A DNA stretch of 38,438 nt, from IMG/VR virus record IMGVR_UViG_2648501437_000025; one strand, written 5' to 3'. The notes under the pieces were generated by a model. The model saw only the letters and a list, made by a program, of their open reading frames with translations, ran no database searches and was not told the origin of the DNA. Shown here one piece after another: positions 18,252 through 36,886 of the stretch. Numbering within the stretch: the first letter of the stretch is position 1; the number at the start of each line of letters is the position of its first letter. Source of the DNA: a virus (taxonomy: Duplodnaviria; Heunggongvirae; Uroviricota; Caudoviricetes). The translations under genes were made by a program, and so were the position numbers.

Positions 18252-18326
<75 letters not shown>

Positions 18327-18332
18327 ATATGA

Positions 18333-18405
<73 letters not shown>

Positions 18406-18407
18406 AA

Positions 18408-18484
18408 TGGACCGTCACCGGGGACTCGAACCCCGCGCCATCAACTTCGAAGGCTGATGCTCTATCCGGATGAGCTAGTGACGG
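18408..18484 (-). tRNA. tRNA-Arg (anticodon TCG)
   Basis: Acceptor CCGTCAC/GTGACGG, D-arm GCTC...GAGC, anticodon stem TCAGC/GTTGA with loop CTTCGAA, T-arm CGGGG-TTCGAGT-CCCCG, encoded CCA. Confidence 0.8.
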
Positions 18485-20661: not shown

Positions 20662-21156
20662 TTAGTTTTGCTGTTCTATTTTAAGCTTGATAGTTTCATA
20701 CAAAACAATAGTTGCGCCTGTTTTACATAATTCCCGACTGTCATACGCACGAGACCAATAACACAACCAATTTTCAAGCTCTTCTCGTGTATAAATTTTA
20801 CAGGCCAGCCCCTCAGCCATCTCCACAACTTCATCGCCTGGTGCGGTTAATTCGTATCCATTTAACAATAAAAAAACCGCACCAGCCATCATTGCTGTGC
20901 GCTTGTTTGCATTGGCAAATGGATGATTCTGAATCAGACTTTCAATCAATACCGATGCCAGTACAAACATGTCGTTGGTTTGCTCATACCATCGAACCAT
21001 ACTGGGACGAGACTGAGAAGAACTTAAATTATCAACACTCAGCACACCAACAGGTTCATCTGGTGTTTGAAGCTCAATTAAAAGGCGATTAATTTCAGTA
21101 AGATCATCAACCGAAAGGTAGTGCACTCCTTCAACAATCTCAGCCATAGAGCACAA
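20662..21156 (-). CDS. doc: Doc-family toxin (Fic/Doc fold)
   Basis: Contains HPFANANKRTAMMAG, a variant of the Fic/Doc HxFx(D/N)(A/G)NKR active-site motif; preceded by a small partner ORF. Confidence 0.8.
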   Translation of the reverse strand: MCSMAEIVEGVHYLSVDDLTEINRLLIELQTPDEPVGVLSVDNLSSSQSRPSMVRWYEQTNDMFVLASVLIESLIQNHPFANANKRTAMMAGAVFLLLNGYELTAPGDEVVEMAEGLACKIYTREELENWLCYWSRAYDSRELCKTGATIVLYETIKLKIEQQN

Positions 21157-21167
21157 TACCCATCATT

Positions 21168-21344
21168 ACACTTTTGAAAGATCTTCCATTGCCTTCTCGT
21201 AACGAGAAAAACCGAAATCGAAAGCATTTTTCACCTGCTCACGATGAGTGCAATTTTCATCGATAGCCGGGCGCGGAGCTGCCACAACGCTTTTATCGCG
21301 AGGGGGAATAGTCAATCGCGGGTGTTTTTTTAGTGCGTAGCTCA
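21168..21344 (-). CDS. Putative antitoxin partner of Doc (58 aa, family not recognised)
   Basis: Small ORF (MSYALKKHPRLTIPPRDKSVVAAPRPAIDENCTHREQVKNAFDFGFSRYEKAMEDLSKV) with AAGGG RBS, ending just upstream of the Doc start; below the 60-aa track cutoff. Confidence 0.5.
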
Positions 21345-21463
21345 TTGGTGTACCCTTACTTCTCCGTCCTGTTCTTTAACAAAAATTAAGTCAATACAAA
21401 ATTAGTCAGGCTAATGTTGTTAGCATAGCCTAATACCAATCGTATTCACAACCACAGTACGTG

Positions 21464-21483
21464 AAAAAACCCGCCGAAGCGGG
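21464..21483 (-). terminator. Intrinsic terminator (cUUCGg-loop hairpin + U-run) at the 3' end of the hok locus
   Basis: Identical core to the 20624 element: aaaaaa-cccgc-cgaa-gcggg. Confidence 0.6.
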
Positions 21484-21553
21484 TTAAGTGCGGGTGCGTT
21501 GAGGATGCCTGACATATCAGAGGTGGCGGGAGATTACTCTCCCGCCCGGTCTC

Positions 21554-21709
21554 TTACTCCTCAGGTTCGTAAGCTGTGAAGACAGCGACCTCCGTCTGCC
21601 CGGTTCGGATTCGTACCTCGCAGAGGTCTTTCCTCGTTACCAGTGCCGTCACTATGACGGTTAAACAGATGACGATCAGGGCGACTAACATCGCCTTTTG
21701 CTGCTTCAT
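21554..21709 (-). CDS. hok: Hok/Gef-family type I toxin
   Basis: MKQQKAMLVALIVICLTVIVTALVTRKDLCEVRIRTGQTEVAVFTAYEPEE is near-identical to E. coli HokC/Gef as I remember it; AAGGAG RBS. Confidence 0.85.
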   Translation of the reverse strand: MKQQKAMLVALIVICLTVIVTALVTRKDLCEVRIRTGQTEVAVFTAYEPEE

Positions 21710-21766
21710 AGCCTGCATCTCCTTGACCTTTCGGTCCGTAAGAGGCAATCTATATGTGACGAGCAT
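21554..21766 (-). CDS. mok: Mok (in-frame N-terminally extended reading frame over hok)
   Basis: 70-aa ORF MLVTYRLPLTDRKVKEMQAMKQQ... matches the MokC-style extension; GAGG RBS upstream of the ATG at 21766. Confidence 0.6.
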   Translation of the reverse strand: MLVTYRLPLTDRKVKEMQAMKQQKAMLVALIVICLTVIVTALVTRKDLCEVRIRTGQTEVAVFTAYEPEE

Positions 21767-21806
21767 ATAGGGGCCTCACTTCGATTTATAGTCGGGTGGG
21801 GCTTTT
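21745..21806 (+). ncRNA. sok: Candidate Sok-like antisense RNA (approximate bounds)
   Basis: Plus-strand hairpin gcctcac...gtggggc followed by TTTT at 21773-21806, antisense to the mok translation-initiation region; 5' end not determined. Confidence 0.35.
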
Positions 21807-21949
21807 ATCTATCTGCCGTTGGTGTTCATGCCCGAGGCTGATAGCCTCAAGCACCCGCAGCAATTTTACTTAATTTCCCTTTAGTCAGAAATCATTTTTT
21901 AATCTATCTTGAAACAAGACTCAAATTCACAAATAAATTAAATATAAAA

Positions 21950-22852
21950 CTAAAACTCTATTTTTTGTGCCGGACGTGAGTTTAAAATCCAGCACTCCTG
22001 ATGTGTATGATGTATAGTTAGTAGATTGTCAAACTGAGATTTCTTAGCGTCAAATTCCATTTTATTTTTAAAGTCAACATTAAAATCTCCTGTTTCAATA
22101 GAGGCAAGAGCTTTGAGTCTATTGCATTCAGCATGCATATCAATTATATCGCTAAAACCTTCGCTTTTAATTCTTTTATTAACATAGTTCGTATAAATCC
22201 CTGCATGTTTATAAGAATCCATCACAGTGTATAATCCATCACCATCAATATCTGTAGGAGATGACATCCATTTAAAAACATGTAGAAGAAAAATATTTGC
22301 TGACCAAGGAAACACCACCCCATTAGCAAATGTTTCTGAAGTACCAGAACTAAGACTTTCATTAAGATTAGTCGCACCGATTAAGATCACATCGGTTTCA
22401 AACTCGTTCCGTTTACCAGCACCTACAAAATTAAAGGTCCCGGCATAGCATTGCCCAAGATAAACAACAGCATTTTTAAGATTTGGGGCTTCCTTCAAAG
22501 CCTTCAGTAATTGGCTTGGTGGGATAGGTTTCTGTGCATCAAGTCCATGAGGGCCACCATGACCAGTTACAAACATAACTATGTTATCATATGTATTATC
22601 ATTTAAGTCATTAAAAAAAACTGCTGATGGTTTTGACTTAAAAGGATATCTAGAAGCGAGTGCAAAAGCACCATCGTAATTCATTGAAGGGCTATCTATA
22701 TATATCGAAATATCATCTGGATTGATACCTGCCTTTTCGAGGCACATCACACCAAAGACTAAATCGACAACATGACGAAATTCCACTGCAGCTTTCGAAC
22801 AAGGCAAAAACATCACCCACCTTGTGCGTTCAGACCTAAGACTCATATACAT
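21950..22852 (-). CDS. Clan CD (legumain/caspase-like) cysteine peptidase-like protein
   Basis: Motifs NIVMFVTGHGGPHG and NAVVYLGQCYAG, 37 residues apart, follow the hydrophobic strand + His-Gly ... hydrophobic strand + Cys layout of legumain/caspase catalytic dyads; AT-rich gene; alternative start at 22813 with AAGGTGG RBS. Confidence 0.55.
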   Translation of the reverse strand: MYMSLRSERTRWVMFLPCSKAAVEFRHVVDLVFGVMCLEKAGINPDDISIYIDSPSMNYDGAFALASRYPFKSKPSAVFFNDLNDNTYDNIVMFVTGHGGPHGLDAQKPIPPSQLLKALKEAPNLKNAVVYLGQCYAGTFNFVGAGKRNEFETDVILIGATNLNESLSSGTSETFANGVVFPWSANIFLLHVFKWMSSPTDIDGDGLYTVMDSYKHAGIYTNYVNKRIKSEGFSDIIDMHAECNRLKALASIETGDFNVDFKNKMEFDAKKSQFDNLLTIHHTHQECWILNSRPAQKIEF

Positions 22853-36510: not shown

Positions 36511-36705
36511 ATGCGGTATGAAAAAGTCAAACCATGCCCTTTTTGTGGTTGTCTATCAGTAACGGTAAAAGCCATTTCAGGATATTACCGCGCGAAGTGT
36601 AACGGATGCGAATCCCGAACCGGCTATGGTGGAAGTGAAAAAGAAGCACTCGAACGATGGAATAAACGAACCACTGGAAGTAATAATGGAGGTGTTCATG
36701 TATAA
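36511..36705 (+). CDS. ralR: RalR (Lar) restriction-alleviation protein / type I toxin
   Basis: MRYEKVKPCPFCGCLSVTVKAISGYYRAKCNGCESRTGYGGSEKEALERWNKR... matches Rac RalR from memory. Confidence 0.75.
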   Translation: MRYEKVKPCPFCGCLSVTVKAISGYYRAKCNGCESRTGYGGSEKEALERWNKRTTGSNNGGVHV

Positions 36706-36886
36706 AATTACCGCCACTATTGAAAAGGAAGGTGGCACTCCTACTAACTGGACAAGGTACTCAAAAACAAAATTAACCAAATCAGAATGCGAAAAAATGC
36801 TCTCAGGTAAAAAAGAAGCAGGCGGTTCCAGAGAGCAGAAAGTAAAACTGATAAATTTTAATTGCGAGAAACTTCAGTCGTCGTGA
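36698..36886 (+). CDS. ydaC: YdaC-like protein
   Basis: MYKITATIEKEGGTPTNWTRYSKTKL...; ATG overlaps the ralR 3' end, preceded by GGAGG. Confidence 0.55.
   Translation: MYKITATIEKEGGTPTNWTRYSKTKLTKSECEKMLSGKKEAGGSREQKVKLINFNCEKLQSS

Follow-up and report, generated by a model that had tools for sequence, protein, structure and literature searches.

On the minus strand between positions 21464 and 21900 of the 38,438-nucleotide stretch analysed here (IMG/VR record IMGVR_UViG_2648501437_000025, below "the window") there is very probably a complete toxin-antitoxin cassette of type I, a hok/mok/sok locus belonging to the HokD/HokW/Gef clade; it is set within the nin region of a lambdoid prophage of the Rac-like kind. 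The initial annotation, drawn from the letters of the DNA, had proposed such a cassette, and each of the items that it listed was recovered in its place, with hok on the minus strand. The messenger is numbered from the G at 21856 (minus strand) as +1, which is where the match to Rfam RF01794 starts, aligned with the conserved 5' ends of relatives. The genes of the sense strand and their expression signals are as follows.

21891..21863, minus: putative hok promoter; -10 TAAAAT at 21868-21863, 6 nt before +1, and a weak -35, TTTCTG/TTCTGA, at about 21891-21885
21856..21464, minus: full-length hok mRNA of about 392 nt, its 3' end in the U-run 21469-21464
21777-21774, minus: Shine-Dalgarno of mok, GAGG, nt 80-83, with 7 nt between it and the mok AUG
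21766..21554, minus: mok ORF, 70 aa, in frame with hok, with 19 additional N-terminal codons
21724-21719, minus: Shine-Dalgarno of hok, AAGGAG, nt 133-138, with 9 nt between it and the hok AUG
21709..21554, minus: hok ORF, 51 aa, MKQQKAMLVALIVICLTVIVTALVTRKDLCEVRIRTGQTEVAVFTAYEPEE
21571-21568, minus: UACG motif for TadA A-to-I editing, at Tyr47; the edited A, at 21570, would recode Tyr to Cys
21546-21525, minus: 3' UTR hairpin GGCGGGAGAG-UAAU-CUCCCGCC, nt 311-332, the expected 3'-terminal stem once the mRNA is processed
21485-21464, minus: intrinsic terminator of the hok mRNA, (AA)CCCGC-UUCG-GCGGG(UU), then the U-run

Reading frames, expression signals and setting

The 51-aa product scores 82.3 bits against Pfam HOK_GEF (PF01848; cut-off 22, E 1.7e-23) and matches the PHROG family phrog_251, 'MokW-like host killing', at 1.9e-32, which bears out its reading as a Hok/Gef toxin; the identical protein is named HokD by PGAP. 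The NCBIfam Hok subfamily model gives it 49 bits, under a 73-bit cut-off that fits R1-type Hok. The proposed Mok extension is likewise there, its ATG (21766) lying in frame 57 nt 5' of that of hok, and the Shine-Dalgarno elements of both frames are as good as had been claimed, the GAGG box being present 5' of the mok start of the R1-type locus also, and that of hok being partly sequestered in a predicted hairpin (nt 110-143). The mok frame is not constant in the family: it is in frame at 57 nt in the window, hokC, hokW and the R1-type locus and out of frame at 58 nt in Rac 442/2, hokB and others. The idea that an in-frame mok is unusual was thus rejected, as hokC, hokW and the R1-type plasmid locus have it too and close relatives are out of frame.

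Rfam family RF01794, which bears the name 'sok', matches 21856-21707 over its whole length (model positions 1-157 of 157; 99.9 bits with a gathering score of 59, E 1.2e-21). The match is on the hok-sense strand and the final three model positions align with the hok AUG, so the family describes the leader of hok mRNA and not the antisense RNA, and an antitoxin gene could be put on the wrong strand on account of it. The full-length hok mRNA has a predicted folding energy of -161.8 kcal/mol (z -6.45), and none of 100 shuffles folds as well. Taken together, the score of the leader match and the z-score of the fold place a real toxin-antitoxin locus far beyond chance.

Relatives used for alignment were the loci of SC418, PPompW, phage Rac, N1420, Stx2 phage I (hokW), K-12 hokD, hokC and hokB and an R1-type plasmid locus. 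The column of the hok -10 box is kept in aligned relatives as TAAAAT, TAGAAT, TAGGAT or TATAAT, and homology to other loci begins about there. A simple consensus scan of 21300-22000 listed neither promoters nor the hok terminator; its rule is 4-of-6, with both promoters of the cassette falling below it, so that the promoter assignments rest on homology and position rather than on consensus strength. Though absent from the scan, the terminator stands out both on inspection and in the folds, and our guess is that it was missed because extension of the stem by two A-U pairs leaves just 4 U in the tail. It consists of CCCGC-UUCG-GCGGG and six U (21483-21464), and it is kept in the alignment in SC418, PPompW, Rac, N1420 and K-12 hokD.

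The window is a Rac-like lambdoid prophage, its best matches carrying trkG, ydaT, ydaU and ydaV, and there is a match to the RalA sRNA. hok is on the same strand as the early-right genes, with a 300-aa ORF of unknown function and the replication genes to one side and a Doc-like toxin-antitoxin pair, a NinB-like gene, YbcO and Q to the other. The scan detected no terminator between the upstream ORF and hok.

Predicted RNA conformers and tac-fbi covariation

Predicted folding of the transcript turns on a few short elements, given here with the nucleotide in which the window differs from its relatives.

21856-21845, minus: tac, nt 1-12, GGGUGCUUGAGG
21854-21828, minus: 5' hairpin, nt 3-29, formed by tac and the nucleotides just downstream of it
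21839, minus: private substitution, A at nt 18 against U in all relatives, giving an A.A mismatch within stem 13-48
21804-21798, minus: ucb, or anti-SD box, AAGCCCC, nt 53-59; partner of the mok Shine-Dalgarno in the full-length RNA and of tac after 3' truncation
21763-21757, minus: loop of the mok-start hairpin, CUCGUCA, nt 94-100, which opens with a YUNR motif (CUCG)
21746-21742, minus: dcb, GCCUC, nt 111-115, pairing with GAGGC (80-84) in the truncated open conformer
21504-21492, minus: fbi, nt 353-365, CCUCAACGCACCC

In the predicted minimum free energy (MFE) structure of the full-length RNA, tac (nt 1-12) is joined to fbi (nt 353-365) by 12 pairs with one bulged C, and ucb, by the GCC... 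at nt 55-59, pairs with the mok Shine-Dalgarno (nt 80-84); forcing either alternative pairing on the full-length RNA costs about 11 kcal/mol. Folded by themselves, the first 35 nt adopt the 5' hairpin as their MFE structure, as do RNAs cut at nt 338-353; this hairpin corresponds to the metastable one of nascent plasmid R1 hok mRNA (PMC9841398). When the RNA is cut at nt 330, nt 1-8 pair with nt 53-59, and the consensus allele adopts this tac/ucb pairing as its MFE at all the truncations tried. In the tac/ucb conformer GAGGC (80-84) pairs with GCCUC (111-115) of dcb, with the mok-start hairpin on top, and the 5'-terminal 6 nt of the predicted Sok RNA are complementary to the loop of that hairpin. 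Closed, metastable and open conformers make up the plasmid R1 hok model (PMC9841398), and in the computed folds the sequence at 21464-21900 reproduces all three.

The initial annotation had spoken of fold-back hairpins 3' of the stop codon. There is a strong local hairpin (21546-21525), but the fold-back itself is no local hairpin; it is the long-range 5'-3' pairing of tac with fbi. The local hairpin aligns in all close prophage-type relatives while the sequences of its arms vary, and in K-12 hokC the corresponding stretch is interrupted by IS186.

For covariation, a pattern scan of species-representative genomes was combined with fetched loci. Most of the 120 matches to the pattern GCCTCTTAC-N(9-14)-CAAGGAG are chance occurrences in unrelated phyla, and on requiring a Hok-like ORF there were 33 usable hok loci, from Escherichia, Shigella, Photorhabdus, Kluyvera, Buttiauxella, Siccibacter, Pantoea, Kosakonia and others. 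For 20 of 31 loci, the segment that pairs best with the 5' end of the same locus is situated 41-55 nt past the stop codon. The 33 loci yield 13 distinct tac/fbi sequence types, every one of which keeps 11-12 tac-fbi pairs, and at three positions there are two-sided compensatory changes, the pair types being distributed over the sequence types as follows.

tac position 4 (13 sequence types): U-A 7, C-G 5, U-G 1
tac position 7: U-A 5, C-G 4, U-G 3
tac position 12: G-C 7, A-U 6

Bulges put the MAFFT columns of the inner half of the helix out of register, so the count was made on the outer 7 pairs only, and the full helix was tabulated from RNAduplex. In the outer helix 96.4% of cells are paired, a share that falls to 38-57% once the partner is shifted by 1-3 columns, and the covariation score is reached by none of 500 shuffles.

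The predicted antisense RNA and allelic variation

The putative antisense gene runs against the leader on the plus strand.

21723..21751, plus: putative Sok promoter; -35 TTGACC at 21723-21728, a 17-nt spacer and -10 CAATCT at 21746-21751
about 21758..21808, plus: predicted Sok antisense RNA, about 50 nt; a single-stranded 5' tail, GACGAGCAU..., that spans the mok start codon and is followed by a hairpin and UUUUAU

An antisense hairpin followed by a T-run had been pointed out on this strand, and at 21767-21808 it stands clear of shuffled sequence (z -4.3 to -4.9). The promoter was placed from the aligned antisense strands of the 33 hok loci, most of which carry TAxxxT at the -10 position. Its -35 agrees with the consensus at 5 of 6 positions and its -10 at 2 of 6, just as in annotated sokC; the -10 CAATCT is common to the window and the E. 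coli SC418 and PPompW prophages, with CACTCT as the K-12 sokC equivalent. Annotated sokC has its 5' end 7 nt past the hexamer and 9 nt inside mokC, and the Sok start is put at G21758 by analogy with it. The predicted RNA folds with -21.1 kcal/mol (z -4.9), and the predicted 51-nt Sok and the annotated 59-nt SokC share the same shape of tail, hairpin and U-run. Among prophage alleles the segment of Sok and its target (nt ~59-100) is the least conserved, with pairwise identities of 0.45-0.67 versus 0.83-0.94 in the coding sequence.

The substitution at nt 18 is in the leader itself. The nearest contig, 99.965% identical over 5.7 kb, has U at +18, as have the other relatives, and A18 is therefore either private to the window sequence or a sequencing error. 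That both leader SNPs are private was considered and rejected, the other, +140 A>U, being common to contigs in 69 index blocks: the exact 70-aa Mok, including the Lys-to-Met change that results from it, occurs in those 69 blocks with the same neighbours as in the window. A18 removes one pair of stem 13-48, at a predicted cost of about 5 kcal/mol. When truncated at nt 352, the window allele gives -135.6 kcal/mol with the 5' hairpin and -133.2 with tac/ucb, a gap of 2.4; the corresponding values for the truncated consensus allele are -135.8 and -138.3, so that, by prediction, the truncated RNA with U18A has the 5' hairpin as its ground state and no longer tac/ucb. Single substitutions in R1 hok that destabilise the open conformer abolish toxicity (PMC9841398), and since A18 disfavours the same conformer in the models, the window allele may be attenuated through it.

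The toxin itself is widespread in public assemblies. The exact 51-aa Hok is in 6905 assembly index blocks and, among the matches listed (6 places), is always upstream of DUF1367-YbcO-Q or of RusA and an antiterminator. By megablast the cassette is in 4707 of 5426 complete E. coli genomes, where it is usually annotated 'hokD' or 'Hok/Gef family protein', and also in 78 phage records; the 146-nt leader/Sok segment is covered in 608 of the 5426, at identities of at most 98.6%.

As far as sequence can tell, then, the hallmarks of hok/mok/sok are present at 21464-21900, with Sok as a predicted gene. By analogy with relatives of demonstrated activity the copy may be functional, with caution called for by the weak Sok -10 (CAATCT) and by the private substitution at 21839, which weakens a leader stem in silico.

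Regulation and probable role in the prophage

By the R1 scheme, a weak promoter would give rise to a stable hok mRNA of about 392 nt. In the nascent RNA the 5' tac box is predicted to fold into the local hairpin, and in the finished RNA, again by prediction, tac is paired with fbi and the mok Shine-Dalgarno held by ucb, a form that would be neither translated nor bound by Sok. Slow 3' trimming, as in plasmid R1, would strip away fbi, upon which, in silico, tac pairs with ucb and the mok Shine-Dalgarno shifts to a stem with dcb that presents the mok-start hairpin. The 5' tail of a short-lived Sok would pair with the loop and start region, blocking translation of mok and leading to RNase III decay. 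Should the supply of Sok stop, mok and the coupled hok would be translated and the 51-aa Hok would damage the inner membrane.

Editing by TadA of the UAC(G) codon for Tyr47 to Cys probably tunes toxicity, to judge by K-12 hokD. Transcripts from hokC, hokD and hokE are reported to be edited to Cys at the equivalent of Tyr47 (PMC12214031), and UACGAA is invariant in all 13 aligned alleles. A tRNA-like hairpin around UACG, of the tRNA-Arg type whose loop presents the motif in TadA-edited hok transcripts (hokB, hokC, hokD and hokE), found no support, the fold having a z of only -1.57 and the site lying in an unpaired junction instead of a hairpin loop.

The most likely role, by analogy, is that of the closest tested relative, hokW-sokW, in which Sok is lost on induction and Hok aids lysis and phage release, with retention of the prophage as a secondary possibility. 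Mitomycin C treatment of cells with prophage Sp5 leads to the disappearance of Sok and the appearance of HokW in a way that depends on RecA, and deletion of hokW-sokW halves phage release (PMC8621323). Prophages are approximately four-fold enriched in hok genes (bioRxiv 10.1101/2025.08.07.668861). A broader and rather improbable reading is that prophage hok/sok loci are induction-coupled lysis helpers with allele-specific antitoxins. The cassette is co-oriented with the early-right/nin operon and no terminator was detected between the upstream ORF and hok, so on this reading antiterminated read-through upon induction would hit the weak Sok promoter head-on and shut Sok off, which would explain the RecA-dependent loss of sokW; the variable Sok/target segment could then stop co-resident prophage copies from neutralising each other, and U18A would be a natural attenuated allele.

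Other explanations have to be kept in mind. That the resemblance is fortuitous or the ORF mis-called, and that there is no real toxin-antitoxin locus, has nothing on its side other than the empty consensus scan, and can be regarded as refuted by three independent model libraries, whose E-values range from 1e-21 to 1e-32, by the fold z-score and by nucleotide-level collinearity with known loci. It is a good deal less far-fetched, if still rather unlikely, that the main role is prophage retention or phage exclusion, by post-segregational killing or abortive infection as for R1, in place of help with lysis. R1 hok/sok is reported to mediate plasmid maintenance and partial exclusion of T4 (PMC8621323; bioRxiv 10.1101/2025.08.07.668861), and hok here adjoins a second toxin-antitoxin module, with the Doc-like toxin, in a variable region of accessory genes (morons); yet the PADLOC defence models give no match above noise on hok and its neighbours, and the sole direct test of a prophage hok/sok showed a positive effect on phage release (PMC8621323).

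The cassette might also be structurally complete but a silent or attenuated passenger that is never activated in vivo, whether from such loci being generally untriggered or from this allele being a hypomorph. According to the same preprint (bioRxiv 10.1101/2025.08.07.668861), chromosomal hok loci are unable to mediate killing or rifampicin activation, hokA, hokB and hokC being reported as without post-segregational killing. The U18A mismatch, which moves the predicted equilibrium of the truncated RNA to the closed 5' hairpin, points the same way in the light of the R1 substitutions that destabilise the open conformer and abolish toxicity (PMC9841398), and both the hok -35 and the Sok -10 are weak. 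Set against this, all elements are intact and compensatory changes keep the pairings across genera, the identical Hok protein is kept in thousands of assemblies, and hokW-sokW, with a 90% identical toxin in the same prophage position, is active (PMC8621323); U18A, moreover, is a single change that the closest relatives do not have and may be very recent or a sequencing error. We consider a silent passenger unlikely, and an induction-linked role like that of hokW-sokW remains the preferred reading.

The significance is mainly for annotation. Automatic pipelines annotate just the 51-aa 'HokD' CDS at such loci, with no feature under the leader, and mok, Sok and the regulatory RNA elements consequently go unrecorded. 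Otherwise the locus contributes a further intact copy of a cassette that is very common in prophages, and a natural leader variant, U18A, usable for testing the conformational-switch model outside plasmid R1. The mildly useful points are the caveat on the strand of the Rfam family, the private leader variant and the low conservation of Sok and its target.

Comparison with known hok systems

The cassette is collinear with intact prophage loci from the -10 box to fbi, and in the majority of relatives on to the terminator, with no large insertion or deletion; it combines a 5' half of the SC418/PPompW type with a 3' half of the N1420 type. Closest among the tested systems is hokW-sokW of Stx2 phage 933W and Sakai prophage Sp5, shown experimentally to be a toxin-antitoxin system of type I with a toxic HokW that SokW neutralises (PMC8621323). 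Its Hok belongs to the same clade, it occupies the corresponding place within a lambdoid prophage's nin region, and tac, fbi, the Shine-Dalgarno elements and the in-frame 57-nt mok are as in the window. The differences are that the leader of the window lacks a 21-nt segment present in the Sok hairpin region of hokW-sokW, that the Sok 5' tail is GACGAG... in the window and GUUCAG... in hokW-sokW with -10 boxes of CAATCT and TAACCT, respectively, and that hokW has a different sequence after fbi where the window has its terminator.

Plasmid R1 hok/sok (parB) has the same gene layout and three-conformer RNA logic, and the core GCCUCUUAC...CAAGGAG is common to the R1-type locus and the window. However, R1 hok/sok is plasmid-borne, its Hok is only 39% identical to that of the window, its tac is GGCGC where the window has GGGUGC, with fbi changed to match, and its Sok -10, TATCCT, is stronger than CAATCT.

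The initial annotation had contrasted this copy with the degenerate chromosomal loci, and the contrast holds, since K-12 hokD, hokC and mokA are all damaged. hokC (gef)/mokC/sokC of K-12 is chromosomal and not prophage-borne; it has an in-frame mok like the window, a Hok 84% identical and the same Sok promoter architecture (TTGACC, 17 nt, CAxTCT), but IS186, 20 nt past the stop codon, removes fbi and the terminator. K-12 mokA is a pseudogene abutting IS150. hokD (relF), in the Qin prophage of E. coli K-12, encodes a toxin that differs from the Hok of the window only at I9V, and its 3' UTR, fbi and terminator are nearly identical, but homology starts only at the hok Shine-Dalgarno, relBE taking the place of the promoter, tac, ucb, the mok start and the Sok gene. 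On alignment, therefore, K-12 hokD is a 5'-truncated derivative and the copy in the window the complete form, an ordinary and already known representative of a well-known family at its customary site in an E. coli Rac-like lambdoid prophage.

Strand and variability of the Sok segment

Two segments of the cassette bear on its antisense RNA:
21707-21856, minus strand, match to RF01794, the Rfam family named 'sok antitoxin'
21757-21798 (mRNA nt ~59-100), Sok gene/target segment, the cassette's most variable stretch among prophage-type alleles

The RF01794 match lies on the hok-sense strand and its end falls in the hok start codon, and so the model, its name notwithstanding, describes the leader of the hok mRNA; Sok itself is encoded on the strand opposite the match. 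Among the 12 complete E. coli genomes listed, no RefSeq feature is annotated beneath the 146-nt leader/Sok segment.

When ten prophage-type alleles are compared (that of the window and those of loci L001, L002, L003, L008, L009, L080, L083, L094 and L110), conservation within the cassette is lowest in the Sok gene/target segment, with pairwise identity of 0.45-0.67 there as against 0.83-0.94 for the hok CDS, and the Sok hairpin carries a 21-nt indel. The leader of the window has a private substitution at 21839, where mRNA +18 is A and all relatives have U, among them a contig with 99.965% identity across 5.7 kb. Either the mutation is recent or the base is a sequencing error, and with A at this position the leader stem 13-48 is predicted to be ~5 kcal/mol weaker.

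Tandem cassettes in Photorhabdus

Multiple copies are present in Photorhabdus luminescens DSM 3368:
L022 3467-6578, four tandem hok cassettes with a spacing of ~1 kb

Tandem cassettes were likewise noted for a second compared locus, L044. The tandem copies differ most in the Sok 5′ tail and the mok-start loop, the remainder being near-identical, and it is this distribution of sequence differences that hints at copy-specific antitoxin pairing.

Neighboring genes and further toxin-antitoxin modules

Other features of the window are:
21950-22852, minus strand, 300-aa ORF
20662-21345, minus strand, Doc/Fic 'death-on-curing' toxin and a 59-aa ORF
18252-18484, minus strand, three clustered tRNA genes, Gly(tcc), Thr(tgt) and Arg(tcg)
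36704-36882, minus strand, match to RalA sRNA (RF02694, full-length, 212.5 bits)

The 300-aa ORF directly precedes the hok promoter, a position that it keeps in the six closest contigs. Its sole match is a weak one to Peptidase_C13 (legumain/caspase-like; 2.9e-6), and PHROG, NCBIfam and PADLOC yielded no family. On the downstream side, the Doc/Fic toxin (164 aa; TIGR01550, 4e-35; phrog_577) and the 59-aa ORF upstream of it directly adjoin the hok terminator, so that two toxin-antitoxin modules stand back to back. The 59-aa ORF, which matches phrog_2208 and had no match in a Pfam search, is presumably the antitoxin. The same pair is found in E. coli N1420, a strain with an aligned prophage hok locus, and in all contigs whose Mok is identical to that of the window.

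The tRNA cluster lies beyond the Q antiterminator gene, on its downstream side; in related prophages only Gly and Thr are present. In Rac, RalA is the antitoxin of the type I system RalR/RalA, and with its match the window has at least three toxin-antitoxin modules.
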